A stretch of 62,381 bases of DNA, filler included, from Asterionella formosa (Eukaryota): NCBI GenBank assembly GCA_002256025.1. It is 19 parts of 19 records of this genome, joined end to end, with 100 filler letters (N's around TTAATTAATTAA, not from the genome) between each part and the next. Parts side by side here need not be neighbours in the genome. Positions count along the whole stretch, not along the records: positions 23,063 to 26,252 come from NKIB01014373.1; 18 more parts are not named here. The stretch is one strand, 5' to 3'. Below are positions 3,200 to 62,250 of this stretch, piece by piece; positions within the stretch are counted from its first letter, which is position 1, and each line of letters begins with the position of its first letter. The notes under the pieces were generated by a model. It did no database searches. It was not told the DNA's origin and saw only the letters and a program-made list of their open reading frames with translations. A program made the position numbers and the translations under genes.

Positions 3200-3299
3200 N
3201 NNNNNNNNNNNNNNNNNNNNNNNNNNNNNNNNNNNNNNNNNNNTTAATTAATTAANNNNNNNNNNNNNNNNNNNNNNNNNNNNNNNNNNNNNNNNNNNN
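3200..3299. other. Artificial contig linker (44 N + TTAATTAATTAA + 44 N), one of 18
   Basis: The same 100-bp block, with stops in all six frames, starts at 3200, 6499, 9794, 13087, 16379, 19669, 22963, 26253, 29542, 32831, 36120, 39404, 42688, 45971, 49254, 52537, 55819 and 59101. The intervening contigs are 3181-3199 bp. Confidence 0.99.
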
Positions 3300-4391
3300 G
3301 CAACCTATGCAGTTACAGAAACAATGAGAAGGAATGATTTGTTAGCAAGTAGTCATGTTACATTGAAACAACGACACGCAATTCCATCGTATCCTCTTGC
3401 TTCACTTACCACAAATCAATGCAACTGATGCATAAGTCTGTAATAGTAACTTGTCAGTAAGCCAAATTCTTGAATAAGTAAGTTTCGGGTATCCAATGTT
3501 GTTGAATAAACTTACCGGTACATTTTTGTCATCTTAACTTTGAGAGAAGGTAAACGTTTTGTCAGCTTTGTTCCAACAGAAGTGAATAGGTCCAACGAGC
3601 GACAAGAGCACTTACGCAATTTGGTTTGGTTTTGTTTTACATTGGTGCTCCCCAACAAGCAAATCGAGCTGTTGAATCAACTGAGAAAAAAGGAAATGTG
3701 GCTGCGTTTAGTTAACAATTTGTTGTTGTGCTGCCTGTCTCCCAACGATTGTCATCCAAGTAGCTACCACATTGATGGCTTCATTATATTACCTTAAACA
3801 TTCTCCATCCTTCGAAGGCGCAATGTGTCGAAGTCACAATGTTTTTCGTTATGTATTGCGAAAATTTTCTTTTCTTTTAATGTGCTTTACTACGACGTAT
3901 CTTTTCATGAAGCAGCAGGCATTGTTTGTTAACATGACAGAACGATTTCAAAAATATATATGCCATGGATATAGTAATAAAATTTGTAAATATATATATA
4001 TATTAAGCGTTGCACATTTATAAAATTCAAAAGCGCTCTCGATATGGAACATCTGATATGGTTGAGATGGCCATACTCGCATATACATAATTCGAAAATA
4101 CTCAATGCACTATATGTCCATTTTTTCCACGACTACGTGTACCGGAATTGTTTCTGAAATTGTTTGCATCGATATTTTCTACATCCGTTGAAACTAATTT
4201 TTTAGACCGTTCAAATGCAGCAAGGGTTTTGGTAGCAAATTGTTTAAGCCCCTTTTTTGGGCGGAAGCTCTTCATGTGTACCGGTACATCATATGACAAT
4301 AACAATGTATCATTTATACATACAGGGTACCAGTAGCAGGTAGTAAGTGATATACTGGGGGTAGTCGGAGTAGTACCGGTAAACTAGCAAC

Positions 4392-4706
4392 AGAACACCA
4401 TATGTTCAGGACTGTTGCTACTGCAGTGGGACAGTAAATCATCATAGTTTTAGGATCGTATGATCGTAAGCCTAAAAACCAATAGAACACAAAATTTCTA
4501 TGACTGCTGCTACTGCAGCGGGACAGTAAATCATCATAATTTTAGGATTGTATGATCGTAAAACTGAAAACTAATGGAATACCATATATTCAGGACTGTT
4601 GCTACTACCGTGGGACAATAAATCATCATAGTTCTAGGATTGTATGATCGTAAAACTAATAACCAATAGTCGGAATAATAAGCGAGCAACAGAACACCAT
4701 ATGTTC
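4392..4706. repeat. Tandem array of ~92-bp units with hairpin core AGTTTTAGGAT-n6-ATCGTAAAACT
   Basis: Units start at 4392, 4484 and 4576, with a partial unit at 4691. Homologous arrays lie at 40850-41165 and 54995-55531. Confidence 0.9.
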
Positions 4707-5514
4707 TGGCATACCTACCCGGTAGTTATCATAATATTGCTTTTATGAATTTAACTGGCGCGATAATTAGCCAGGCTGACAAGTTACTACCGGTACCAAG
4801 TAGTACGTCTACATCTTTTATCAGCACCTTTAAGTAGCACCTACAGTTATGGTGGTACTATGTTTTTCCCTATTATTTTCTGTCGCAGCTCTGTAGAGAG
4901 GCTGTGAAAGTCAAAGCGCTGCCCCCCGCCCCCCTCTATTACCGGTATACCGGAAAAATTTGGTACATCACCCATTATCGTGCGTTGCAACGGCCCGTGA
5001 CAGGGTGGCTGTGGTTATGGAGCAGGGGGTAGAACGCCACAACATGACGAAGTCCCAAGGATCATGAATGGAAAGAAAACTTTGCTGCATTCTGGTGGTA
5101 CCATTGGACTTGGAAAACAGCGAGGAAGGTTGTATCCCACCGTATCAAACGGTTTCGAATAAGAGGAGTTGGAACGATGAGATGTGACAAGAACCGACCT
5201 GACACTTCTGTCCAACTTGGTCGATGGATGTCTCCCGCTTATTTGTGACTTCCTGCGCAACAAAACTTGCCACAACGACGAATCAAACGGTTTCGAATAT
5301 GAGGAGTGGTTGGAACGAAGAGACTTGTCATAAACATGACACTTCTGTCCGAGTCGGTCGATGGAGCAAAAGAAACGACACCAGCGTCCGGTTATTTGCT
5401 AATGGCTGTACTTGATTAAAAACAAATAACCATTTTGTTAGTAACTATTTATGAGTAAATAAAAATTCTTACTTCCATCTTTCCCCATAGGAATCAAGCA
5501 AAAACGAAACTAGT

Positions 5515-5616
5515 CCTGACGAGGAATACTGTGTCGTCGATCCGGAAAGTGGGGAACTCATTCGTCTCACAGTAGCCGAAAAGCAGCGTATCTTTCTGGA
5601 CGCGCTTCAGTCCTAC
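5515..5616 (+). pseudogene. PGRL1: Captured PGRL1 (PGR5-like 1) gene fragment
   Basis: Translates as PDEEYCVVDPESGELIRLTVAEKQRIFLDALQSY, the same segment as 41890-42072 and 55541-55818. It is preceded in frame by an acceptor-like ttccccatAG ending at 5490. Confidence 0.7.
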
Positions 5617-22163: not shown

Positions 22164-22408
22164 TCCATTGGTATAGATGCACACTAAATGTACTTAGTAC
22201 ATACTATGTACCGGTATATCACAATTACCTATACCAGCGGGCCCCTTGGGAAAATCCGATAAAACACGTTTTTAACTTAAAAAACGATTCAGCTAAATAT
22301 CTCGACTATCGGACCTTCCTTGGTATAGTCCGGACGTACATCCTCTTAGAAATCATGAATAAAGATACCAGGTACCGGTACTATACTACCGGAATGTAGC
22401 ATAGTGAG

Positions 22409-22962
22409 TGTCAAGAATATAGCATCAATGGCTATAATGAGTCACAAGGACTGTGGACTCGACTAAAGTCCAATGAGTCAAATGGTGCGTTCCCATGTCA
22501 AGAAGCTTGCTAACGAGATTGATGTCTTAGATCAATCAGAAGAAGGTTTACATCAACGAAAAGGGAACACGAAGAACAGGTTCTCGAAGTGTGATGAATG
22601 GGATTGAAACTTAGTTTTAGTTTAATCTTATAATTAAGAAACAGTGAGAATTGACAGAGTAAGGTCAATAGCGAAAACTAGCACGAAGGCTAGCAGCAGA
22701 AAGAAGATAACAATACTAGTGGTATAACAGGTAAGTTCTACGTAAGAGGAACCCGTCAGACGGGAAGGAGTACGAGACCTTTCAACACGCTTTAAAGCGA
22801 TCACTTTTAAGGCCACAGGCTACTCAGGAACCATGGGAAGTGACGAAGACACGTCAGTGAGGTTGCCGACATTCGATGGGCAAGATGCTAAATGGCACAT
22901 GTGGAAAGCGAAGTTTCTCGCATACGCCGCGTGCTACAAGAACTTTCAAGGAATACTTAACG
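22409..22962 (+). mobile_element. Ty1/Copia element 1: 5' LTR (22409-22787), palindrome (22788-22799) and start of gag (22833-)
   Basis: TGTCAAGA...TTTCAACA LTR-like ends. The gag N-terminus RLPTFDGQDAKWHMWKAKFLAYA is homologous to the gag starts at 25221 and 59718. Confidence 0.8.
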
Positions 22963-23062: not shown

Positions 23063-25677
23063 TTCGAGTTAGCGACAGAGTTCGTTAGTCGCGTGTGCAT
23101 GTGGACACTCTCGGCCCACAGTAGCCCCTGGTATTCGTCTGACAGTTTTGCACTGAACATGGAGGCACATGCTCGGTCTCGTATCGTCACAAATTTTCGT
23201 TCCACGACTCCGTTCTGTTGAGGAGTATGGGGGGCAGTATACTCAATCTGAATACCCTGCGTGGTGCAGACGATACTTAGACTGGTCATATTTTCACCGG
23301 CGTTGTCGCAGCGTAGGAAGCGTACTACATAGCCCGCTGACTTGAGTGTAGTCAGTAGGGCATCCGCGATGCTCGCCAAAAGACTCTTCTTGTTAACAAA
23401 ATAACTCCATGCCTTGCCTGTGTACTGATCCACAAATAGAATCCAGTAGTTGCTTCCAATTAGAGATTTCTTGTAGGGACCTGAAATGTCCACGTACAAT
23501 CGTTCAGCAGGAGTAGAGGCCTTGAGGGTCGTGACTTTAGGTACCGCTTTGGCCTTTGCCTAAGCTAGTGCGCAGCCTTCACACGACTGAATCTTGCCCG
23601 TAGGTTCAATACCGAGGGACTTAAGCGTTTCGCGAAGGGATGCCTTGCTGATGTGGCCATATTTGTCGTGGGTCTCGTTGATGTCAATTTGCGTTGGTTT
23701 CTTGGTAGATTTTGCCGTAGGAAGTTGCGTCACTGACTTGGTATTCGTTGGAGTAGGATCAGGTGTATGGTTTGTTGTCGAGTCGTGGATAGACAAGACC
23801 GTTTCGGATTGTAGGGTACGTTTTCCCTTGAAGTAGTAAAGGACGCCTTGATCCTCACAAGAAAAGGTTAGTTCGTTGTCGTACCCTTCCTTATGTAGAC
23901 TCAACTCAGAACCCTTCATGCGTGCCTCGCACCCTCCGTTCTTGAAAAATTGCCCGATGCTGACGATGTTCTTGTGGAAGTGTGGAGTGTAGAGTACCTT
24001 GCGTAGTAACATGGAGCACGTCTTGTTGGTAATCAGAATATCACCTCGTTTCGTGCATACCACCTCTTTACCGTCACCGACAACGACCGAGACGTTGACA
24101 TTTTCGACGTTTGTCATGTATTCGTCAGTCATAGTGATGTGCGTGGTAGCCCCAGTGTCCGCGAGCCAGCGCTCCGTTCCGTTGCTTGATGCACAGTACT
24201 GGTCTTCGTACCACTCGTCTTCCATTGTAGGGACGAAACACACGCGTAGGAGTTCTTCAGCAGGAGTCTCTGTAGTTTTCTGCGTGACGTCCATGGTACC
24301 AGGGATAGCATCCGTCGCCTCCATACCGGTAATCTCCTCGCCGGTTTCTTTCTTCTTCTCGCCACGTGGTGCGCGTTTTGGTTCCGGGCAGTCTCTTGCA
24401 ATATGCCCGACATATTTATTGCAATTATAGCACTTTATCTCATTTTTTTCGTTCGTACCGTTTGCATTCGTTCCGCTTGTGTTCGTATTAGATCGGCACA
24501 CGTCGGCCTTGTGCCCTTGTTTGCCGCAGTTCTTGCAGATACATTTGTATTTCTGCGTGAATAGGGTGATCTCCTTTGTGCTCTTCGTGCCCTTTAGCTT
24601 TCGTTTGTAGAATGCTCGGATCTTTCCTTTCAATTCGTTGAGGCTGATTGTTGTCATGCCCTCGACGACTGTAACAACCTCGCTGTACTCCACTGGAAGC
24701 TTGTCGATAACGTTCGCAATCACTTCCATTTCTTTCTTCTCAAATGACGGGTCGATCGCCATCATCTTGCTTTGTATTAGATCGAGCTCAATGAACCATT
24801 CGTCTGGATCAGAGGAGCTATTGTTCAGCTTGCATTTGTTGAAATCGCTTGCCAGCTGGATCAGGTCCGACACAGAATGGGGGGCATACCTCGCTTCGAG
24901 GTTCTTCCACGCCATGTATGCATCGCCATCGATCAACGTTTTCGTTTTGGCTTGGTTTACGAGTCCGAAGGCGATTCCGGTGCAGCTCATGATGAGCAAC
25001 TGGTACGCCTTGTCGTTGGCCTCGTAGATAGCCCTGACTCCTTTGTCTGTCTCGACTTCGTACTCTTCGTCAGAACATGGGTTGTGGTTCTTGGAGTACA
25101 TCGTTCGGAATCCTCTTGCCTTCGCCAGAGCGAGCGTTTTAACGCTCCACTGGTACCAGTTCGTTTCGTTGCCATCAAACTTGATGAGCCTCATGCTCTC
25201 TTCAGACATTTCTGTAGACATGTTAAAACACTTAAGTCCGTTTATAAACGTGTTAAAGTATTACCTTTTGTATAGATCTATATCGTTAGACAAAGAAGAC
25301 TATAGATAGAGACGTTCGTTTCTCTTTCCGTTTCTATATTCTTATTGTGAGTTTACTAATCTAGTTTAGGTTGTTCTGTTTGAACAAACAAACGAACTAT
25401 TCTCCAAATGCTGTTTGCATTTCTAGAAACATACAATCATAGATAGACCCATGTCTATCTCACACTTACTGATCATAAGTTTTTAACCATGATCATTCAT
25501 TTTCAAACTATCGGTCTTCCGAAATAGCTTACATTGTCCGGCTCATTATAGTCGGAGTAACAAGGTATAATGTGTGGTTGATGAGAGCTTGGTACATCAA
25601 AGTGGACTCATTCGAATCGTTTGACTCGTTTGACTCCGAGTCCTAACTACGTACCGGTAGATGAGCTCACTTTAACA
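23063..25677 (-). mobile_element. Ty1/Copia element 2: 5' LTR (25251-25677) and gag-protease-integrase; truncated at contig end
   Basis: LTR has perfect 9-bp terminal IR TGTTAAAGT/ACTTTAACA. Two CCHC knuckles, protease WLADTGAT, H-H-C-C motif, and integrase (VDISGP, LRCDNAGE, PQQNGVVER). One in-frame TAG at 23560-62 where element 3 has Lys. Confidence 0.95.
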
Positions 25678-25723
25678 ACATGATACCGACCATAATATCA
25701 AATTTCATACCCGGTCATTTGTA

Positions 25724-26128
25724 CAAATCTACAAAGGTCAAAATACGGGACTGCAAGTATACTGAAAAAAAACTTTCTTTTCTGTCTACGGAGTACATGC
25801 TACCTGATAGAACAACGAGGTAAGAGGTACCACGTACCAATAAGGCCAAATATTACTCCGTGCCTGTGAATAAACAGATGTCCTGGTACTAGACCACAGA
25901 TACCAGGTACTAACCAATTACACGTATGTACGGATACATAAAAAAAATCATAAGAATATACCGATCGTCATTTGAAATCAGTACAGGTCACCAGTTCAAA
26001 TCTACAAAGGTACAAGATACAACTACATTATACTGTACAGTGAAAAAAGGCTCTCTTCTCTGTCTACCGAGGACATCCTACCAGGTACCAGGTACCTGGT
26101 ACCGGATAGAACGACGAGGTACCTGGTG
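25724..26128. repeat. Diverged local direct duplication (~25724-25825 vs ~25997-26128)
   Basis: caaatctacaaagg...ctgtctac...gatagaac.acgaggta occurs twice. The second copy has extra CCWGGTA units. Confidence 0.75.
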
Positions 26129-26929
26129 AGCGATCTTGCGCATCAATACAGATGTATATAGGGTTAGTGTTATATCATGTATGTATAAGAACTCAATAAT
26201 GAGAGAACTCGACTAACCCTCATTGTATAGTTTGGTGTCGACTTGGAGAACGNNNNNNNNNNNNNNNNNNNNNNNNNNNNNNNNNNNNNNNNNNNNTTAA
26301 TTAATTAANNNNNNNNNNNNNNNNNNNNNNNNNNNNNNNNNNNNNNNNNNNNATACAAATATTACGACGACGCAGCACAAGTGTTTGTTCAGACGACCCT
26401 GCTTGCTTCTTCACTTTCGTCACTCTCCTGCTCATCCTTACCAGTATGGTGCAAATCTATTGATAATATAACGGTATGTAGAGGGGCCGCATACCTGATA
26501 CTCCACCATTTGCTTACCAGTTCACACTCGGAGTACCGGTACCATCATTAGTTACTGTCAGACAACTTGTAATGCGTACCATGTGATTTGAAAAGTTGTA
26601 AGCATGCCGATACTACCAGGTACCCCGGCACCGGTCTACCAAGATTTACCGGTATTTCATTGGACCGGTATTCGTAGCTATCGGTACGAAAATCGTCGAG
26701 AATGTTATGTCACAAAGCAAGGAGGGGTGGCGGCGTTGGCGAGCCGCCGGCATGATCGGCAGGCGGCCGACCTTGAAATGACCGACAAGGGGGTCTGGTA
26801 ATCGAGCCTATGCTGTACAGCAGCAGGCCCCACAGCCATCGCCATACTGAACGATCACACAATATATAGTGTACCGTAATTGCTAAATAAATGGGCTCCA
26901 ACACTGCTGTTTGTAACTTACAAATACTG

Positions 26930-32930: not shown

Positions 32931-35900
32931 CGAAAGTGTCAATGTCTACGAAGTCATTCCAGAAGACTACAAGAAACACCATCAAGATGCCGAACCGCAA
33001 ATGCATTATCTCAAGCAAGTTGATGAAGAGGAGAGCTTGTCCACGCTGATCACGGCTGCCTTGCAAGACATTCGATTGCATCAAGCAAGGATCAAGGCAA
33101 GCTTACTCAATGACACCACCTGGCTGCAGACATATTCATTTGCCTATGACGACGCATACCAAGAGCGGGTCGCTCGGCGGGAGGCTCGGTTGGCATACCT
33201 GAACAAACTACAAAGAGATGCAACGCTTATTTTGAGAGAGCTTGAAGATGACAAAAAAGTGCTGCTGACACAAGGAGAGAGAGTGCAAGTCAAGTTGGCG
33301 CGATGGCAACGGGCCTTGGAATTGTTTGTGTACTCACCAAGGCAGATGAATTTGGACTTGCTTGGATTGCTGGAAAAGCTATTGGAAGGCACAAGTGAAG
33401 TAAGTTATTTGTTTACGAACAACATCGCATATCGATTGTGTCGCGGCTTTATCCTTCGATTGCACTCACTCACACGCATGTTACATTGCTATTTCACTCA
33501 CAATGCACAGGAAGAAGAATTGTCACAAATCTTGTCGCAAGCATCTCACATGTGTCAAACCCTGGTGGAAACCACACACGCATCTATGCGGGACGCGACG
33601 GAAGATGCCGCTGAAGCCGAAGATGCATACCAAATTAGATTGGAAGCTCATGCCATGTTTGCACGAGCTGCATTTTCTAGTTGTGAAGAAATTCAATCCC
33701 AATTCAGGACCAATGGACGTGCGGCATTGCAAATCGGACATCAATTGGAATTTGCTGAAGCCAAGCGTGGACATTGTGAGGCAGCATCCATATTGATTCG
33801 ACGATGGTGGATGATGGAAAATTTGGCGGAACAGGAAGAAAATCAAGGACCCTTGCGAGTCCAAGAAGAAGTCAGGGGGCTCATTCCGGTTGCATCTTGT
33901 CGGATGGATCCACTCTTTACACTGCCTTCGCAGTCGTTGGAAGCATCCAAGGCTCTCAAGCAGCTGAGAGCCGTCATCAAGTCCAGAGGAAACGCCGCCA
34001 CGGCCGCCGCGACAGCCAGTGAAGGGTATGGGGCCGATCCAAACAACAAACGAAGATTCGATTTGACGGCAAATCTCATTCATCGGACGTCGCTGGCATT
34101 AGAACAACGATTATTGAACGCCTTTTCGGAAATTTATTCCAGAGGCGGCATCTATGACTTTTCTGACAATCCTCGAGGAGGATCGATTGATTGGATACAA
34201 TTGCGTGAATTGGCCCACGCCCTGCTTTTATTTGACTCGGGACGTAATTTGCACAAGCGCTATGTAGAAATGGTCATTTCCTCAAGATTTCCAGAACTTT
34301 TTCAACCGAAAAAAAATATTATCGACGAGGAAGATGGGGATGCCATGGAATTCGATATGGATGCGACCCGGTCGGAACTATCATCCTTGTTTCATCGGGT
34401 TAGTGATGTCTGCACGGCCGAATTCGAGTTGATTGCCCACGTTTTCGGGTCGGCTGCGAAAAACACCACGGGAAGTAACGAGGAAATGACTCTGACGGTG
34501 GCGAGAGCCTTGTTGCAGCGTGTCATTTCGGATCAGAAAAACGGCTTGCAAGCGAGAATCTCTGAATTGTTGGACTCGATTGACCGCAGAGGGGATTTTG
34601 AAGCCGGGGCCAAGAAATTAGATACTTTTGTCGTCATTCATGAAAAGGCCGCTGGCTTATTCATGCTGTTGAAGGACTCAGCCGAAAAGATGTTGACGCA
34701 TGATGAGCAGAAGAATGAAGAAGGGCCTGCTGAGACTACTGTTTCTGCTGTGACAGCCTTGAAGCAGTTCCTCGCATCACAAGAAACTGCTCTGTCTAGT
34801 GGCCATCGCAAGTCATACCTCAATCTAGAACTGCGATTGCTTCACAATGACTGCTGCACGACGTTGGATAATATTGGTTGTGTCCTCGATAGGCCAGCCA
34901 CCCGTTACATTGATCTCTCTCGTGCCGAACAGGGTATTCTTGATGACTACGTGGCGCCAGTGTTGGCTATCAACAAGAAATACTTGTTGAGTCCTCAATG
35001 CGATCTCTTGAGTGGACCGCTCAAGTCTTCGGTCCTTCGTCAACCTCTCATTTGCGCAACCGACTCGCTGGCCCGTGCACGACTTATGTTTGGGGCAGGG
35101 AAAAAGGGTGGTCAGACCACTGCTCGAGTAATTTCTTCGTTGTATAGTCAAATGTGCAACTTTTACGGTCAAGCTTACTTGTATCCCATCATTGAAGCCT
35201 TAGGCGAGCGTCTTTCTCCACAAGCTCTAAGCTCCCCTCCTCAACTCCCGTTCGACGAAAACGACCAAGCACCCGACATGGGTGTCAGCACCTTTTTCTG
35301 GGTTGCACTGGAATACATTCACACGGCGGCCAAATCATTTGACCGTGAATTGTGGGCAGAAAACCGTCCAGGAAGCGCTCGAGTCTGGGAAACGTTGACG
35401 GAAACTGGGGATCATGTTTCCTTGGCACAAGCCCGAAAAAACCGCTTTCACTTTTTTGCTGAATTGGAAGCCCGTGGTGAAGTGACAATCGGTCGAGCTC
35501 TCCGAACGTTGAGTGAGCATATTCGTTGGATCCTTGTGGCTGGAGGAGAATCCATGTTTGCCACTGGAGGAAATCGCTTCTTTTCCACTCAAGGCAACGG
35601 TCCTTATGCAATTGCCCCTGGCTCATCATTGGAAGCCCCCAATAGTCCTGCGGTCAAGTCGCTAACATTTTGCTTGAGATCACAATTTGTCAATATCCAA
35701 GCGGCCTTGACGCCACAGTCACTGTCAGCCTTTTGGACTGCTTTGTCTATGCGACTCTACGATATCTTTGTGCCTCGCCTGCTTCAGCATTACAATGTTA
35801 CGACTGTGGGAGCCGTCATTTTGTCTCGTGACGTGGAAGCCCTGCGATCCGTGTCCATGTTGGCTGGAAGCAACCATCAGCATTGGGACAATTTACGAGA

Positions 35901-36119
35901 ACTGGTAACCTTGTATATGACACCACCCATTGCTCTCAAGGGTATGTTGGTAGGGCCGGAAGGGGATATCAATTCTGGCAAGGGTTTGTTCAAGCGAGTT
36001 GGACGCTACCAATCATTGGTGTTTTTGAGCCGGCGAGGAGATTACCGTGTCAAGACTGCCCAAGGCCCTCGCAAGAGCACATGGGTGGTGGAATTGTTGG
36101 AAGAGTTGGGAGTTCAAGA
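32931..36119 (+). CDS. SEC10: Exocyst subunit Sec10/EXOC5-like protein, truncated at both contig ends
   Basis: Long helical ORF with an N-terminal coiled coil. C-terminal GAVILSRDV...HWDNLRELVTLYMTPP...FLSRRGDY resembles the Sec10 C-terminus. A probable 111-bp in-frame GTAAGT...CAG intron lies at 33400-33510. Confidence 0.7.
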
Positions 36120-39627: not shown

Positions 39628-42072
39628 GCCAACTATTCCGTTGTTTGATTGGTTTTATGGTCCTATGCAGTTACAGAAACAATGAGAAGGAATGATTTGT
39701 TAGCTAGTAGTCATGTTACATTGAAACAACGACACGCAATTCCATCGTATCCTCTTGCTTCACTTACCACAAATCAATGCAACTGAGGATGCATAAGTCT
39801 GTTATAGTAACTTTTCAGTAAGCCAAATTCTTGAATAAGTAAGTTTCGGGTATCCAATGTTGTCGAATAAAACTTACCGGTTCATTTTTGTCATCTTCAC
39901 TTTGAGAGAAGGTAAACGTTTTGTCAGCTTTGTTCCAACAGAAGTGAATAGGTCCAACGAGCGACAAGAGCACTTACGCAATTTGGTTCGGTTTTGTTTT
40001 ACATTGGTGCTCCCCAAGTCAGCTTTGTTCCAACAGAAGTGAATAGGTCCAACGAGCGACAAGAGCACTTACGCAATTTGGTTCGGTTTTGTTTTACATT
40101 GGTGCTCCCCAACAAGCGAAACGAGCTGTTGAATCAACTGAGAAAAAAGGAAATGTGGCTGCGTTTAGTTAACAATTTGATGTTGTGCTGCCTGTCTCCC
40201 AACGATTGTCATCCTAGTACCACATTGATGGCTTCATTACCTTAAACATTCTCCATCCTTCGAAGGCACAATGTGTCGAAGTCACAATGTTTTTTTCGTT
40301 ATGTATTGCGTAAACTTACTTTGCTTTTCATGTGATTTACTACGACATATCTTTTCATGAAGCAGCAGGCATTGTTTGTTAACATGACAGAACGATTTCA
40401 AAAATAAATATGCCATGAATACAGTAATAGAATTTGTAAATATATGTATATATATATATTAAGTAATATACATTTATAAAATTCAAAGGCGCTCTCGATA
40501 TGGAACATCTGATATGGTTGAGATGGCCATACTCGCATATACATAATTCGAAAATACTCAATGCACTATATGTCCATTGTTTTCCACAACTACGTGTACC
40601 GGAATTGTTTCTGAAATTTGTTTGCATCGATATTTTCTACGTCCGTTGAAACTAATTATTTAGACCGTTCAAATGCCGCAAGGGTTTTGGTAGCAAATTG
40701 TTTAATCCCCTTTTTTGGGCGGGAGCTCTTCATGTGTACCGGTACATCATATGACAATAACAATGTATCATTTATACATACAGAGTACCAGTAGCAGGTA
40801 GTAACTGATATACTGGGGGTAGTCGGAGTAGTACCGGTAAACTAGCAACAGAACACCATTTGTTCAGGACTGTTGCTACTGCAGTGGGACAGTAAATCAT
40901 CATAGTTTTAGGATTGTATGATCGTAAAATTATGATCCAAAAGAACACCATATGTTCATGACTGCTGCTATTGCAGCGGGACAGTAAATCATCATAGTTT
41001 TAGGATCGTATGATCGTAAAAGTAAAAACCAATGGAATACCATATATTCAGGACTGTTGCTACTACCGTGGGACAATAAATCATCATAGTTCTAGGATTT
41101 TATGATCGTAAAACTAAAAACCAATAGTCGGAGTAATAAGCGAGCAACAGAACACCATATGTTCTGGCATACCTACCCGGTAGTTATCATAAAATTGCTT
41201 TTATGAATTTAACTGGCGCGATAATTAGCCATGCTGACGAGTTACTACCGGTACCAGGTAGAACGTCTACATCTTTTATCAGCACCTACAGTTATGGTGG
41301 TACAATGTTTTTCCCTATTATTTTCTGTCGCAGCTTGTAGAGAGGCTGTGAAAGTCAAAGCGCTGCCCCCCGCCCCCCCCCTCTATTATACCGGAAAATT
41401 TTGGTACATCACCCATTATCGTGCGTTGCAACGGCCCACGACAGGGTGGCTGTGGTTATGGAGCAGGGGGTAGAACGCCACAACATGACGAAGTCCCAAG
41501 GATCATGAATGGGTGGTACCATTGGACTTAGGAAACAGCGAGGAAGGTTGTATCCCGCCGTATCAAATGGTTTCGAATAAAAGGAGTTGGAACGAAGAGA
41601 TGAGACAAGAACTGACCTGACACTTCTGTCCGACTTGGTTGATGGATGTCTCCCGCCTATTTGTGACTTCCTGCGCAACAAAACAAAACTTGCCACAACG
41701 ACGAATCAAACGGGTTTCGAATATGAGGAGTGGTTGGAACGAAGAGACTTGTCATAAACATGACACTTCTGTCCGACTCGGTCGATGGAGCAAAAGAAAC
41801 GACACCATTTTGTTAGTAACTATTTATGAGTAAATAAAAATTCTTACTTCCATCTTTCCCCATAGGAATCAAGCAAAAACGAAACTAGTCCTGACAAGGA
41901 ATACTGTGTTGTCGATCCGGAAAGTGGGGAACTCATTCGTCTCACAGTAGCCGAAAAGGAGCGTATCTTTCTGGACGCGCTTCAGTCCTATGATGCAGCT
42001 GGAAGGCAAATGCTCAAGGATGACGAATTTTACCTATTGAAGGAAGATTTGCAATGGAAGAACGGATCTGAG
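39628..42072. mobile_element. Repeat family A copy with an internal ~95-bp tandem duplication
   Basis: Collinear with 3300-5616. 39923-40016 is repeated at 40018-40111. The array lies at 40850-41165. Confidence 0.85.
41890..42072 (+). pseudogene. PGRL1: Captured PGRL1 fragment (longest 3' extent)
   Basis: PDKEYCVVDPESGELIRLTVAEKERIFLDALQSYDAAGRQMLKDDEFYLLKEDLQWKNGSE matches the PGRL1 pattern E..FL.ALQS.Y..G...M..EEF..LKE.L.W.GS. Confidence 0.8.
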
Positions 42073-53713: not shown

Positions 53714-55818
53714 AATGCTATCTATTAATCTACATGCCAGCGACCCAACGTTTCTCTCTCCACTCGGCTCAATGTATATTCCTTTCTTGCTCTTTCTTCC
53801 TCTGATCTGAATCGTGTGCGAGGCAGTGCCTTACTGATGCTGCGTCTCTTTCCCTGCTGTAAGTGTCATTCTTAACTTGCCGACTATTCCGTTGTTTGAT
53901 TGTTTTCATTGTCCTATGCATGCAATTACAGTTACAATGAGAAGGAATGGTTTGTTAGCTAGTCATGTTACATTGACACAAGAACACGCAATTCCATCGT
54001 ATCCTCTTGCTTCACGTACCACAAATCAATGCAACTGATGCATAAGTCTGTAATAGTAACCTGTCAGTAAATTCTTGAATAAGTAAGTTTCGGGTATCCA
54101 ATGTTGTGGAATAAAACTTACCGGTTCATTTTTGTCATCTTAACTTTGAGAGAATATAAACGTTTTGTTAGTTTTGTTCCAACAGAAGTGAATAGGTCCA
54201 ACGAGCGACAAGAGCACTTACGTAATTTGGTTTTGTTTTACATTGGTGCTCCCCAACAAGCGAAACGAGCTGTTGAATCATCTGAGAAAAAAGGAAATGT
54301 GGCTGCGTTTAGTTAACAATTTGTTGTTGTACTGCCTGCCTCCCAATGATTGTCATCCAAGTACCACATTGATGGCTTCATTACCTTAAACATTCTCCAT
54401 CCTTCGAAGGCGCAATGTATCGAAGTCACAATGTTTTTCGTGATGTATTGCGAAAACTTTCTTTTCTTGTCATGTGCTTTACTACGACGTATCTTTTCAT
54501 GAAGCAGCAGGCATTGTTTGTTAACATGACAGAACGATTTCAAAAAAATATATGCCATGTATATAGTAATATAATTTGTAAATATATATATATAAATTAA
54601 GTGTTATACATTTATAAAATTCAAAGGCGCTCTCGATATGGAACATCTGATATGGTTGGGATGATCATACTCGCATATACATAATTCGAAAATACTCAAT
54701 GCACTATATGTCCATTGTTTTCCACGACTACCGGTACATGTACCGGTATTATCTCTGAAATTTGTTTGCATCGATATTTTCTACGTCCGTTGAGACTAAT
54801 TATTTAGACCGTTCAAATGCCGCAAGGGTTTTGGTAGCGAATTGTTTAAGCCCCTTTTTTGGGCGGGAGCTCTTCATGTGTACCGTTACATCATATGACA
54901 ATGACAATATATCATATATATACACGGAGTACCAGTAGCAGGTAGTAAGTGATATAGCTACTGGGGGTAGTCGGAGTAGTAAACTAGTAGCAACAGAACA
55001 CCATATGTTCAGGACTGTTGCTACTGCAGTGGGACAGTAAATCATCATAGTTTTAGGATAGTATGATTGTAAAACTAAAACCCAATAGAACACCATATGT
55101 TCATGACTGTTGCAATTACAGTGGGACAGTAAATCATCATGATTTTAGGATTGTATGATTGTAAAACTAAAAACAAATCGAAAACTATATGTTCAGAACT
55201 GTTGCTACCATAGCACACTGCAGTGGGACAGTAAATCATCATAGTTTTAGGATTGTATGATCGTAAAACTAAAAAGCAGTAGTCGGAGTAATAAGCAAGC
55301 AATAGAACACCATAGTAAATCATCATAGTTTTAGGATTGTATGATCGTGAAACTGAAAAGCGGTACTGGTAGTTGGAGTAATAAGCAAGCAATAGAACAC
55401 CATAGTAAATCATCATAGTTTTAGGATTGTATGATCGTGAAACTGAAAAGCGGTACCGGTAGTCGGAGTAATAAGCAAGCAATAGAACACCATATGTCTA
55501 TGACTGCTGCTACTACAGCGGGACAGTAAATGAATTTAAGATCATCGAACTTTAAGGAAGACAACGACAACAGCTGGTCGTGTTGCTGGTCCACTTTTAA
55601 TGGCCGAAGAAGGAAGCGACGAAAAGATCACCATTTTGAGCGGAACAAGAGAAATCGCTTACGACGCCAAGTCTGGACGATTCTTTGAGACTAACTTGCA
55701 GGAAGAAGAATGCATTCCTGACGAGGAATACTGTGTCGTCGATCCGGAAAGTGGGGAACTCATTCGTCTCACAGTAGCCGAAAAGGAGCGTATCTTTCCG
55801 GAAGCGCTTCAGTACTAC
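53714..55818. mobile_element. Repeat family A copy with expanded tandem array and a longer 5' PGRL1 fragment
   Basis: Collinear with 2989-3199 and 3300-4700. The array at 54995-55531 has five hairpin cores. Confidence 0.85.
55541..55818 (+). pseudogene. PGRL1: PGRL1 N-terminal fragment (end of transit peptide plus start of mature protein)
   Basis: ...AGRVAGPLLMAEEGSDEK...ECIPDEEYCVVDPESGELIRLTVAEKERIFPEALQYY. There is no signal peptide upstream, and FLD has become FPE. Confidence 0.7.
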
Positions 55819-55918: not shown

Positions 55919-58900
55919 ATGATGAAAAACTTCTTACATTCAATGTTCGCCTACCTACAATCGAAGAAGCAAACTCCCACACAATTCATTGGTTGACACC
56001 ACGAATTCCCAGCAACTCATCTGAGTTGTTGAAGCAGTCATCTAGGAGGGGACGCGGAAGCATTGTTGAAGAGGAGCCAACTCTATGGGAGAAACGTCTT
56101 GGAAATTCAACTGAGATTGTAACCAAGAAGACACTCGAAGCAACAACACAGCTCTGCACCCAGACAGTTGAAATGGAGAATAGAGAAGCACCCAGACAGC
56201 ATCGAAAGAAGCGTCTAATTCCTCTTCATCCTAATCGACTTGATGGCAGGACAGATTCGGATACGTTTTTCTCATCTATCAAGTCCATCCGGAACTACTC
56301 ATGTGTGCAACTCTTCATTCATATTCCATCGCAATTTCTGTTCGCACGTTGTATGTTTAGAGAGGCACATTCACATGGAGCATACCAGGATTTTGTACGT
56401 GAGGTTGGAGCTCCCAACATTTTGTTGACTGATAACTCTCAAACTCAGTCAGGCACATTGTGGACCAAAACAAGCCAGGAAAACATCACAAAACAAATCC
56501 ATTCTGTCCCACACAACCAAAACCAGAACCAGGCAGAGCTCAAGATCCGGGACATTAAATCTCGAACTATTTTATCTCTACGCTTGGCAAAAGCTCCACT
56601 GACATTCTGGTGCTATTGCATGATGTGGGTTATTGATTGCCTAAATCATTCAGCACATAAGGGACTGGATTGGAGGACTCCCATTGAGAGACTTTACGGA
56701 AGAACTCCAGACATTTCTGTGTTTCGATTTTCCTTCTGGCAAGCAATCTATTACTATGAGCCAACAGCCAAGTACCCCAACCCAAACTTTCTTCTAGGAA
56801 AGTTTGTTGGTATCGCATGGAACCATGGAGATGCATTAACTTATCGCATTTGGACATGTCCTGATGGTAACTGGGAAAAAGGTGTTGAACTCATTCGTAA
56901 TATTGTTCGACCACGAAAGGAAACTTCAGATGAGCCTTACAGTGATGAGGTACCTTATGGTGACCTTACGCTCAAGTCCAGAATAACAAAAATGAAGGAT
57001 CGTAAACGCAAAAGGAACGCTCCCACCAGTCCTATTCCTGAACCTCTAGATGAACCAGAGGATCACGATCTTATTCGTCTAGTTCATTTTGCTCCTACTC
57101 CTCAGATCATTGAAACATCAAAGGGTCTAGAGGAGCAGGGGGGGAAAGAGGAGCAATTCACTACAACAGAAGTAGACAACAAGCAATGCACTACAACAGA
57201 AGTAGACAACAACAACATATCAAAAAATCCACCATCCAACACCGATGATCTTCAGTTCGACTTCGATCCACTTGATGCAACACACGACATTGAAATGTGT
57301 GATGAGATCAATAATGAGCTAGCTGAAGAGCATACAGAGGCAACAAAGATGAGTGGTTCCAGGGTAACTGATATTCGAGCGCATCGCTGGAAGGCCGGGC
57401 AACTTGAGTTGGAGGTGCACTGGGATACTGAAAATGTCTCCTGGGAATAATTTCAGGACTTGAAGCTTGACCATCCAAACATGACAGCACAATACATTGT
57501 AGACAATAATGTCAGTCGTTCCAAACGCCTGGATAGAGTCATGCAATGGGCAAAGAAAACAGTTCGAGACATCAAACGAGCTGTCCGAAGAATTGCAAGG
57601 TTATATGAGCATCATTTTGATGGATGTGATCAGGTGTACACAGTGAGGCGTGCCGACATAAGGAAGAAGAAGCATCCTAAGATTAGGAAGCAAATTCTCA
57701 AGTATGGCGTTGAAGTCCCACGAAATGTCACCCATGCAATGGAATTGGACAAGCAAAGTGGAAACACATTCTGGCAAGAGGCAATCAAACGCAAAATCTC
57801 CTCACTTGTCGAAATGGAATGTTTTGATTTTAAGAAGCCAGATTTTAACCCTGGAGTCGGATATCAATGGACAACACTGACAGTGATCTTTGACGTCAAA
57901 CAAGATCTACGGCGCAAGGCAAGACTTGTGGCTGGCGGACATCTAGTTGATGCACTTGACAACAATATTTACTCTTCAACTGTGAAAGGCATAAGTGTTA
58001 GAATGCTACATGTAATTGCACACAAGCAGAACTTGAAGCTGCTTTGTGGCGATGTTGGAAATGCTTACGTCAATGCATACACTAATGAGCTAGTATACTC
58101 CCGTGCTGGACCAGAATTTGGAGAGGAGTTGAGGTGATCAATCATTCTGATCCGAAAAGCACTATATGGTTTGAGATCAAGCTCTGAGCGTTGGTGGACG
58201 CATTTTGCGGACACGATCCGGGGAATGGGGTTCCAGCCAACTAGGTACGACAAAGATGTGTGGTACAAGATGAGCAATGATACTTCACACTATGAATATA
58301 TCTGCACCCACTCAGATGACTTCATGATAGTGTCAAAAACTCCTGAAGTAATTATGGAAGGACTCAAGCAGGTCTATACGATCAAGTCTGAAGGTCCTCC
58401 AGAATATTATCTTGGGAACGACTTCAAGAAGGACAAGAAGGGCAGGTGGTGTTTTGGATGCAAGAAATACATACAAGAGTCGATTGCAAGAATTGAGGTG
58501 ATGTTTGGTGTGCAACCCAAAAGTACAATTCCAATGAGTGCAAATGATCATCCAGAACTCGATGACACCACACTACTTAGTGATGACGAACATCGAAAGT
58601 TTCAGATGTTAATTGGCATGTTGAATTGGGTAGTAACAATTGGGAGATTTGATGTCGCACACGCCACAATGTCATTGTCAAGATTCTCTGCATGTCCAAG
58701 AAAAGGACACCTTGAGCGGGTATTGAAAGTGTTTGGCTACCTCAAGAGGAGGCCAAATAGGCGAATTGTCGTGGATTCTAGGTCGCCTGACTTCTCAGGA
58801 TTTGAGGAAGATTTTTCTAAAGACTACGCAAGTATTCTTGGTGAAGACTACCCTGAAGCATCTGAGGAGGTTGACTGCAACCTACCAAAGCCATTGGTCA

Positions 58901-59100
58901 ATGAGTTGGACATAACTGTGTTTGTTGACTCAGATCATGCCCATGACAAGATCACACGCAGGTCAGTGACCGGTTTGATTATATTCGTTGGAAGAACACC
59001 AGTATTCTTTATGAGTAGGCGACAAGGAGCAGTGGAGACATCAACATACGGCGCTGAGTTTTGTGCTATGCGCATTGCAGTTGAAGAAACCATAGCTATT
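55919..59100 (+). mobile_element. CoDi-like Copia pol (integrase, chromo-like module, RT, RNase H), inactivated
   Basis: Integrase, then RT (RKARLVAGGH, GDVGNAYVNA, ALYGLRSS, THSDD) and RNase H (VDSDHAHD, ETSTYGAEF). Stop at 57448-50 and a frameshift near 58137. Confidence 0.95.
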
Positions 59101-59360: not shown

Positions 59361-62250
59361 TGACAAATAGTGAAGGGATCATTTGAGTCGAGTCACAAAA
59401 GTGACTGCAACTATGATTAAGCTCCAACTATGTGTTATAGTAAATGTGGCTCCCAGGGACCACAGATGACGAGATGATTGAAGTAGAAGTTGAAAGATCG
59501 AAAATGGATCTTAGGAAGGAGCTTATTCTAAGAAGTAGAAAGCTCACAATAAAGTAAAGCAGAAAGTGAGTTTCTGACGTTTACTAAAGATCTAGAAGTA
59601 GATCACGAGAAATAGCTAGCTGAGAGTGAAGTATAGACGTATACTACTCAAGAGTACTAGATACTTTAACACGTTTATAAACGGACCTTTGTATCTACAA
59701 AGCAAAAGATAAGTAGCATGACTACAGCAGAAGAGAAAGTCGGAACCATCAAGTTTGATGGAGACGAAAACCATTGGCATGAGTGGAGCGTGAAGGCGCT
59801 CGCTCTGGCCAAAAGCAAGGGGTTTCGCCATGTCTATGCCAACGACACAAAACCATGCTCAGATGTGGTCTATTTGACTTCGACGCACAACGAAGAGAAG
59901 AAAAAGTATGAGGATAACGATAAAGCTTACCAGTTTTTAATCCTCAGCTGCACTGGAATCGCTTTTGGGTTAGTGAATCATGCAAAGACGAAGGACCTAA
60001 TCGATGGCGATGCTTTCTTAGGATGGAAGAACCTTAACGACAGGTATGCGCCCAACGAAGCATTAAATTGATTCAGCTTGCTGGAGAATTCAACAAGTGC
60101 AACCTCAAGGATACGAAACCCTGATGAATGGTTCATTAAGTTAGACAACATCAGGAACAGGATGATACATATTGATATCGACTTCGAGAAAAAGGACGCC
60201 GAAGTCATCGCGCATATCATTGACAAACTTCCAGGAGAGTACAGCGAAGTGATTAATATGGTTGAAGGAGTAAAAAACGTGACGCTTACGGAGATCAAGG
60301 CTAAGATCAGGGCGTTCTACAAGCGCAAGTTCAAGACAACAGACAAGAATGAAGACGAATCGGCTTTGTTTGTCGGAGGAAAGTTTAAAGGGAACTGTCA
60401 CAACTGTGGAAAGCAGGGACACAAGGCAGCGGAATGCCGATCAAAAGCGAACACTGCTGGTGGTGGGAACAAGAAACGAGCAAAAGACGATGAATCCGTC
60501 GGCAAAGGAGTCAAATGTTTCAATTGTAATAAGTATGCTGGACACATTGCGAAAGATTGCCCTGAGAAAAATAAGAAAGACGAAAAGGACAAAGACAAAG
60601 AAACCGGAATGTATGTCGGGGTGAGGATTGCGATCGATGACGACGAAGAAACTGCGAAAGAAGTCGTCGAACTCATCAAGAAGACGAACAACAATGAGTT
60701 CAAAAACAAAATCGAAAATAACGAATTTTGTGGAGTGAGTGATGATGTCAAGACTGAAGAATGGTTAGCGGATACAGGAGCTACATGTCATATCACTACG
60801 TGCGATGTTGGTATGACAAATATCGAAACAGTCAAGACTCGAGTCATCGTTGGCAATGGAGAGGAAATTTTATGTACCAAACGTGGTGACATCCTCCTCA
60901 CTGATACTGCTACACAGAAGGTCCTACTCCTGAAGAAGGTCCTATATACACCTACCTTCCACAAGAATATACTAAGTGTCAGTATGTTTGTGCGAAATGG
61001 GAGTTTCGAGGTTGGTATTCTCAAGGACAAGATGACCCTACGCAAGGAAGGGGAGCAAAACGGACTAACTTTCAAGACCAAGGCCAACGGTGTGCTCTAC
61101 TATATGCATGGCACTAGAAAGTACGGCAACAAAACAGCATTGTCCACAGAGGACAAAAACGAGGAAGCTGCGCCGATGACCGGCAAACCTAGTACCGGTA
61201 AGCAAACACCTAAGAAAAGTATGGACATCAATGTCGCACATGACAAATTTGGGCACACTAGCAAGGCAGCTCTGCGTGCTACATTGAAGTCGATTGGTAT
61301 TGAGACCAGTGGAGCCCTACAGCCATGTGAGGGATGTGCTTTGGCTAAAGCAAAATCAAAGGCTGTACCTAAAGTTGCAAATAACAAAGCGACTATGGTA
61401 GGTGAGCGTTTAGGTGCAGATATAAGTGGCCCTTACAAGAAGTCCATTGTCGGGAGTACTTACCGGTACTGGATTTTGGTCGTTGATGAATATAGTGGAA
61501 AATCCTGGAGTTTCTTTGTCAAGAAAAAGTCGCAGATGGCGGCTACAGTGGAACCACTATTGCTTAAATTTCGTTATGCTAACTACATCATTCGGTACCT
61601 GCGATGTGACAATGCTGGGGAAAATATCAAGGGACTTTCTGCAATGTGTGACAGGCTTAATATCACTATCGAATTTACTGCCCCACATACTACCCCACAG
61701 CAAAACGGTATGGTGGAACGCAAATTTGTGACTATTAGAGACAGAAGCGTTGCTGCAATGTTAAAGGCTAAATTTTCTGATGAGTCACAAGGACTCTTAT
61801 GGGCAGAAAGTATCAACACACACACACGCCTCACAAATAGTGTATGCAACACAAATGACATGGAGAAAAGCTTGGATTGGATTTTCTATGGGAAGTGTCC
61901 CGAGATATATGATAATCTTGTTGAATTTGGAAGAATTGGTTGGGTAAAAATACCAGGAAAAATACCTAAACTTGAGGCAGGGGACACATACAGAATGTAC
62001 CAACCAGACACCAAGAAAGTGATCAATACTAGGAACATTAAGTGGGGAGAGTGGCATGGGAAGTCCAATATCACAACAGATATGACCGTTTATGACATCA
62101 CAGAAAATACATTGGATATATTCAACATCATTAGCATCTGATCCCGGAGAACCAAAAGGGTACAAACAAGCAATGACTGATCCTGAACGTGATAAGTGGA
62201 TTGAGGCAATGAAAGTGGAAATTAACAATTTCTACAAACGCAACATCTAA
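59361..62250 (+). mobile_element. Ty1/Copia element 3: 5' LTR ending at 59671, palindrome (59672-83), gag-protease-integrase and start of RT; degenerate
   Basis: Homologous to element 2 (IKFDGDENHWHEWSVKALALAK, two CCHC knuckles, WLADTGAT, LRCDNAGE). Frameshifts near 60070-60120. The LTR 5' boundary is uncertain. Confidence 0.93.

Follow-up and report, generated by a model that had tools for sequence, protein, structure and literature searches.

We identified a perfect 12-nt palindrome, CGTTTATAAACG, at the position normally taken by the primer-binding site (PBS) of a Ty1/copia retrotransposon, here called element 2, in a 62,381-nt stretch of DNA (the window) from an assembly of the diatom Asterionella formosa. 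The palindrome occupies 25239-25250 on the minus strand and abuts the 5' long terminal repeat (LTR) of the element. This feature of diatom Copia elements is real and strongly conserved, and almost certainly functional. Our preferred interpretation, which we hold with a little less than even confidence, is that in a diatom Ty1/copia lineage the 12-mer serves as the site of minus-strand priming, and that it would do so through its self-complementarity and not by binding a tRNA.

Read on the minus strand, the junction runs ...GGTAATACTTTAACA, then CGTTTATAAACG, then GACTTAAGTGTTTTAAC, then ATG. The LTR end ACTTTAACA directly abuts the palindrome, which is followed by GAC, another 14 nt and the gag ATG at 25221-25219, giving a palindrome-to-ATG distance of 17 nt. 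These coordinates confirm those of an earlier note on this DNA, which had also described a clean LTR with a 9-bp terminal inverted repeat. The 5' LTR (25251-25677, minus strand) is 427 nt long, has TG...CA ends and carries the 9-nt terminal inverted repeat TGTTAAAGT/ACTTTAACA, and contigs from public metagenomes support both of its edges. Homology with metagenome contig L049, whose gag N-terminus is 100% identical to that of element 2, starts exactly at 25677, and in L049 a polypurine tract, ...GGAACAAGGAGAG, directly precedes the LTR start TGTTAAAGT. At the other edge, four contigs of run X17 part from the window sequence at 25250/25251, and in L053, a complete related element with genomic flank, the 5' copy reads ...CAATTTAACA then CGTTTTAAAACG and the 3' LTR copy reads ...CAATTTAACA then CATACTG. 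The LTR ends at ...ACA, +/- 1 nt, where the earlier note had put it, and the palindrome starts there.

Judged from the sequence of the site, neither a TGG start nor a canonical PBS is found beside the LTR. The LTR of element 2 holds no second copy of the 12-mer, as had been noted before, and, at a conserved position, no partner with at least 10 of 12 pairs; the exact 12-mer occurs once per element in element 2 and its relatives. Across contigs from four runs, no variant letters were reported at 25239-25250. Element 2 was found in 20 public runs from 16 studies of freshwater, riverine, estuarine and 'algae' metagenomes. Six of these runs are RNA libraries, and the contigs of each of the four RNA libraries examined include the element, presence alone being no proof of transcription.

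The coding part of element 2, comprising gag, protease and integrase, extends over 23063-25221 (minus strand) by Pfam and tblastn and reaches the contig edge. Its open reading frame (ORF) at 23560-25221 (minus strand) contains Retrotran_gag_2, zf-CCHC and Pol_BBD domains and is followed by an rve fragment (Pfam), and tblastn against full-length relatives covers residues 1-745 across 25221-23065. The Ty1/copia domain order of gag, protease, integrase and reverse transcriptase (RT) is found by Pfam in the full-length relatives L053, L050 and L061, which show Retrotran_gag_2, zf-CCHC (in L053 and L050 only), Pol_BBD, rve/rve_3, SH3_retrovirus and RVT_2 in succession; the ORFs in the window agree. 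The LTRs have the features expected of Ty1/copia elements, namely TG...CA ends and a polypurine tract ahead of the 3' LTR.

The same site recurs in two other elements in the window. A second exact copy of CGTTTATAAACG, at 59672-59683 (plus strand), lies in element 3, a member of a different Copia family whose gag-protease region is 46% identical to that of element 2 and whose LTR body cannot be aligned with that of element 2 by blastn; a 24-nt block, ACTTTAACACGTTTATAAACGGAC (59663-59686), is nonetheless identical between the two. The putative 5' LTR of element 3 spans 59433-59671 (plus strand), its end placed by analogy and its start from TGTTATAGT alone, which differs from the inverted repeat at a single position. 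The gag-pol region follows at 59718-62247 (plus strand), with a frameshift near 60060, and runs towards the window end. A variant palindrome, CGCTTTAAAGCG, is found at 22788-22799 (plus strand) in a third Copia element, directly after ...CTTTCAACA. Its gag ATG lies at 22833, 33 nt past the palindrome, and the 43 residues of gag encoded before the contig ends at 22962 match element 2 with 44% identity over 27 aa (E = 2e-7).

By itself, a palindrome of 12 nt is nothing unusual in this DNA. The window contains 56, against 16.8 +/- 4.2 expected from Markov-1 simulations; 18 of them belong to artificial spacers and eight are (AT)n. The part that exceeds chance is position and conservation. The exact CGTTTATAAACG 12-mer occurs twice, against 0.07 expected, and the pattern ACACGYTTNNAARCG occurs three times, against 0.17 expected, on each occasion at an LTR/gag junction.

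A gag N-terminal alignment was used to retrieve relatives, yielding 15 metagenome contigs (L049-L063), 14 of which include sequence upstream of gag (L060 begins within gag). The palindrome stands directly after ...AACA in 13 of these 14. Counted by family, it is present in seven of eight metagenome families and in nine of the ten distinct families once the window is included. The earlier note had proposed a check of relatives for palindromy, and its expectation is borne out here by five different sequences, related by compensatory changes: CGTTTATAAACG, CGCTTTAAAGCG, CGCTTGCAAGCG, CGTTTTAAAACG and CGTTTAAACG. Among the metagenome contigs, CGTTTATAAACG is carried by L049, L051 and L061-L063 and, with one decayed base, by L059; CGCTTGCAAGCG by L050, in which a decayed tandem copy reads TACTTGCAAGCG; CGTTTTAAAACG by L052-L055 and L056; and the 10-nt variant CGTTTAAACG, likewise palindromic, by L057. 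Spacing is zero (...AACA then CG...) in all nine palindrome-carrying families. The leaders of three families, 17, 20 and 19 nt long, have otherwise nothing in common.

The wider cluster of related Copia polyproteins takes in proteins of Fistulifera solaris. Two scans of viral contigs gave no further members: a 15-mer DNA pattern matched 48 loci, none of which by eye had a TTTAACA LTR end upstream and which were treated as chance, and a protein scan with the gag alignment gave 76 pattern matches with none confirmed. Some of the retrieved contigs have a circular character. The ends of L049, L061 and L062 repeat each other, and L050 contains a whole unit of ~4.96 kb in tandem; these four behave as family-level assemblies, with LTR and internal region collapsed to a circle, rather than as single insertions, a typical outcome when assemblers meet LTR elements in many copies. 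L053 repeats its positions 1-103 at 5021-5123, as a pair of LTR ends with genomic flank present.

The differences among the palindromes are informative about what is conserved. Across ten aligned junctions, decayed copies included, 58 of the 60 pair cells are complementary, and the two exceptions belong to decayed copies. At pair 3/10, seven rows have U:A and three have C:G; at the central pair 6/7, five have A:U, three U:A and two G:C. Two pair positions thus covary, with transversions among the changes. In 500 shuffles, the observed values for percent paired, for cells with both sides changed and for the covariation score were never attained; with the partner slid by 1-3 columns, 25-48% of cells paired, and a 9-row version of the alignment gave the same result. 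In a gag tree the AT, GC and TA centres fall within one group (support 92/99), and C:G at pair 3/10 is found both within and outside it, a placement that calls for repeated double changes of independent origin in a tree that is otherwise weakly resolved (no starred branches, two rows short). We regard selection for self-complementarity at the priming position as well supported.

A search of the literature identified one close parallel, which gives the idea a precedent. A similar palindrome has been described in fungal GalEa Copia elements, which are reported to lack a PBS and to carry CTGATCAGT or CTAATTAGT (Donnart et al., 2017; PMC5445492). In that description, where the feature is named the Conserved Hairpin Site (CHSeq1/CHSeq2), the fungal sequence is a 10-nt palindrome only if the final A of the LTR is included. 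Most families also have CHSeq2, an inverse-complementary sequence placed 2-41 nt further on, with which the site makes a hairpin, and according to the authors none of the known models accounts for the GalEa site (PMC5445492). Both groups of elements are Ty1/copia, lack a tRNA-type PBS and have a conserved palindrome at the junction of the 5' LTR and the internal region; in both, the palindrome is more conserved than the LTR, and paired substitutions preserve palindromy.

The diatom site differs from that of GalEa in sequence, being CG(Y)TT..AA(R)CG, in its length of 10-12 nt and in starting after the LTR (register +/- 1 nt). The diatom families are also without a CHSeq2-like hairpin partner, the repeats downstream of their palindromes being inconsistent and unrelated, and the hosts are diatoms rather than fungi. 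The change seen in GalEa is G:C to A:T, which we infer to be a transition of the type that repeat-induced point mutation (RIP) also makes, whereas the diatom changes include transversions. A scan for GalEa motifs in 10 polyproteins found YVDD in 4/10, a KARLVA-like motif in 3/10, ADxxTK in 1/10 and TRPDI in 0/10. The principle has been reported once before, in fungi and also without a mechanism, and the diatom case is not a new category. It is, however, a cleaner one than the fungal case, with a perfect 10-12-nt palindrome, no hairpin partner, very short leaders and compensatory changes of transversion type, centre included; this combination narrows the options to pairing in trans, which is directly testable.

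Other reports touch on the subject less directly. Neumann et al. (2019; PMC6317226) describe plant Copia lineages with half-tRNA priming and others with predicted self-priming, including TAR/Houba, for which a Tf1/Tf2-type mechanism is predicted; the passages of that paper on these plant lineages mention no palindromes. A paper on bivalve terminal-repeat retrotransposons in miniature (TRIM) cites the fungal case only, in the part that bears on it (PMC6934838). Priming is not discussed in the main text of the report on the diatom CoDi elements (Maumus et al., 2009; PMC2806351), whose supplements may list PBS features. A full-text search returned no literature description of this site in diatom elements, nor of these 12-mers in a retroelement context.

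The position of the palindrome bears on its role. In reverse transcription the PBS is placed directly after the LTR, and the end of the unique 5' region (U5) is set where the primer is extended. It follows that the sequence at the palindrome position would be the priming site, whatever primes. Any primer must end ...AAACG-3' or ...AAGCG-3', and the only known carrier of such an end is the site on a second packaged genome.

A host RNA could in principle supply the primer instead. The partner of the site would then be half of a tRNA, a fragment of one or a different small RNA, as it is for Drosophila copia, Osser and Bianca, and the palindromy of the site would be incidental. The anticodon, D and T arms of tRNAs are interrupted repeats with an odd, 7-nt loop, not perfect even palindromes, and this arm structure does not match the site; by-hand reasoning likewise found that the 15-mer complement fits no tRNA anticodon, D or T arm. 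That five differing sequences should each be a perfect palindrome, that two of them occur within one assembly and that none starts with TGG also speak against a host partner. No tRNA was found in the window or in L049-L063 (ARAGORN), and Rfam gave zero matches at gathering scores. In favour of a host RNA, several Copia lineages are firmly known to prime with half-tRNAs, and the PBS of such elements (Drosophila copia, Osser, Bryco and Bianca) lacks a TGG start, as the diatom site does (Neumann et al.; PMC6317226). A PBS of this kind matches an internal tRNA stretch and is not self-complementary, whereas the diatom site is self-complementary. We consider a host-RNA partner unlikely.

Self-pairing could occur within one RNA or between two. 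The palindromes have homodimer energies of -12.4, -21.1, -11.8 and -10.0 kcal/mol and hairpin energies of -0.1, -2.5, -0.1 and 0, and the 10-mer gives no fold at all. Their central four bases are always self-complementary (TATA, TGCA or TTAA), a property not required of a hairpin loop. The self-pairing idea of the earlier note is partly supported: self-complementarity is kept and the homodimer is stable, and fold-back of the 12-mer is disfavoured, in that its hairpins reach only 0 to -2.5 kcal/mol.

Fold-back onto a separate partner in the same RNA, with the palindrome as one arm in the manner of the GalEa hairpin or of Tf1, has precedents in the fungal CHSeq1/CHSeq2 pair and in Tf1 itself, and in some families the site is closely followed, after 1-3 nt, by a further palindrome or inverted repeat peculiar to the family. 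None of at least 4 bp is present in four of the eight families, and those that occur are not complementary to the palindrome; since half of the families lack one, we dropped the second repeat as part of the feature. In none of the families examined does the LTR or leader hold, at a conserved position, a partner with at least 10 of 12 pairs, and no fungal-type CHSeq2 partner with at least 10 of 12 pairs was found in the leader of any family. A Tf1-type complement inside the LTR is likewise missing from the three families with complete LTRs (F1/L049, L050 and L053). Fold-back would, moreover, not require self-complementary central bases, and we judge it very improbable.

With no partner elsewhere and no hairpin, self-pairing in trans or a role at the DNA level remain. 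Perfect even palindromes are typical of sites bound by dimeric DNA-binding proteins, and the 12-mer could on this ground be a double-stranded binding site for a dimeric protein of host or element, serving for example transcription control or integration. Such a site predicts conserved bases rather than covarying pairs with transversions, and would leave the element without any priming site, so that this explanation appears to us the most remote. The diatom lineage offers the clearest argument to date for pairing in trans.

Pairing in trans need not entail priming. The palindrome could be a dimerisation or packaging signal only, with another primer pairing through a few bases at the LTR edge. 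Palindromy over the full length and a covarying centre suit an intermolecular duplex, and palindromes are reported as dimerisation determinants in Ty1 (PMC6844567). Like retroviral dimer initiation sites and the Ty1 PAL sequences, which pair two genomic RNAs, the diatom site is a short palindrome in the 5' leader. Those elements, however, have the palindrome in addition to a tRNA PBS, in retroviruses within a hairpin loop (PMC5445492, in its remarks on known dimer initiation sites), whereas the diatom site is at the PBS position itself, with zero spacing and no stem; no retroviral-type dimer initiation site, with flanking stem and separate PBS, was seen. The leaders of 17-20 nt in three families hold no other conserved sequence, and any primer would need these very bases. 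We therefore consider a signal for dimerisation alone improbable, if less so than a host-RNA partner.

Priming by self-complementarity, the interpretation we prefer, suggests the following course. The 12-mers of two co-packaged genomic RNAs would pair to form a 12-bp dimer duplex. At the 3' edge of this duplex one strand would be cut, probably by the element's own RNase H. Tf1 offers a precedent, in which RNase H cuts an RNA-RNA duplex and so makes the primer. The new 3'-OH would then be extended through U5 and the repeat region (R) of the partner RNA, and plus-strand strong-stop synthesis would copy the primer end back into the progeny. A palindrome would be the only sequence for which primer copy and template copy agree, and hence the sole stable state. 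Copy-back of this kind would explain both the lasting palindromy and its loss in decayed genomic copies (L059 and L050 copy A).

As proposed, this scheme resembles Tf1 in being tRNA-independent and in pairing the element's own RNA with the PBS (over 11 nt in Tf1). It differs in that the LTR of the diatom elements holds no complement, which leaves the site as its own sole partner. The Tf1 PBS is described as non-palindromic and as pairing with the opening 11 nt of the transcript, which lie in the same LTR (PMC5445492). In its fullest form, the scheme would make dimerisation and priming one act, in which the PBS of one RNA, cut at the edge of the self-duplex, primes the other and palindromy maintains itself. 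This stronger version, which would be shared or convergent with fungal GalEa, is a tentative proposal that we regard as possible rather than probable.

Several points weigh against priming by self-complementarity. The cut, the primer and the dimer are all deduced from sequence, and a long RNA primer comprising R, U5 and PBS poses an unsolved problem for termination of plus-strand strong-stop synthesis. The two palindrome variants come from one stitched assembly that may mix organisms, so that they need not share one host. One related family, represented by L058 with only 25 nt of upstream sequence, is without such a palindrome. In the covariation analysis only two of the six pair positions vary, and the pair-count and pair-type measures are not significant (reached by 311/500 and 449/500 shuffles, respectively). 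Finally, the LTR edge and the register of the palindrome are fixed only to within 1 nt.

The start of DNA synthesis is a defining trait of LTR retroelements, nearly all of which use a host tRNA. The known exception, self-priming of the Tf1 type, needed dedicated biochemistry to uncover. If the scheme proposed for the diatom elements is true, LTR elements would have a third general route into reverse transcription, in addition to tRNA priming and to cis self-priming of the Tf1 type. The diatom elements occur in many aquatic metagenomes, and LTR annotation tools built to search for a PBS of the tRNA type will overlook them or score them wrongly.

The make-up of the window sets limits on what can be read from its gene order. 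It consists of size-sorted contigs of ~3.2 kb from a fragmented assembly, chained so that piece lengths fall monotonically from first to last, with 100-nt artificial spacers of the form N44-TTAATTAATTAA-N44 at the joins. TTAATTAATTAA occurs 18 times at a spacing of ~3.28-3.30 kb, and all three copies inspected sit in the middle of N44...N44. The copies start at 3244, 6543, 9838, 13131, 16423, 19713, 23007, 26297, 29586, 32875, 36164, 39448, 42732, 46015, 49298, 52581, 55863 and 59145, and all are artificial spacer. Because the pieces are joined in this way, gene neighbourhoods across spacers are meaningless and a 'truncation' at a spacer is a contig end. Element 2 is confined to the piece at 23063-26252, between the spacer ahead of its contig (22963-23062, no strand, N44-TTAATTAATTAA-N44) and the one that closes it (26253-26352, no strand); it stops at the contig edge, with no biological truncation. 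We rejected a reading of element 2 as 3'-truncated beside a mitochondrial ribosomal gene, and one of element 3 as the neighbour of an upstream Copia RT, since in each case spacers separate the contigs. The stitching of the window leaves the palindrome finding unaffected.

Further repeats were seen near the priming sites. Shortly 3' of the site in element 2 is a second palindrome, ACTTAAGT, at 25230-25237 (minus strand); element 3 has the inverted repeat CTTTGTA-tc-TACAAAG at 59687-59702 (plus strand) just after its site; and in L056 a second palindrome, CAGGCCTG, comes right after the site. At 18-45, L058 contains ATTCAACA and, five bases on, the inverted repeat TCTGAAT-A-ATTCAGA (7+1+7, by eye). 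The LTR of the third element in the window may begin at ~22409 (TGTCAAGAA...). Upstream of it, at 22264-22286 (plus strand), AACA is followed by CGTTTTTAACTTAAAAAACG, an imperfect 20-nt palindrome with 7-bp arms. It may be due to chance, or it may be what is left of the LTR end and priming site of some other family.

Elsewhere in the window, a distant Copia-like element is represented at 57538-59100 (plus strand), on a separate contig, by an RT/RNase H segment; its ends are outside the piece, and it shows 21-25% identity to the relatives used. A repeat of ~2.3 kb containing 92-nt tandem units is common to three contigs (3304-5615, 39662-41990 and 53914-55817). The piece at 33001-36090 contains a Sec10-like ORF whose best named matches are from diatoms, at 53-57% identity, namely Nitzschia, Epithemia, Fistulifera, Seminavis, Cyclotella and Thalassiosira.

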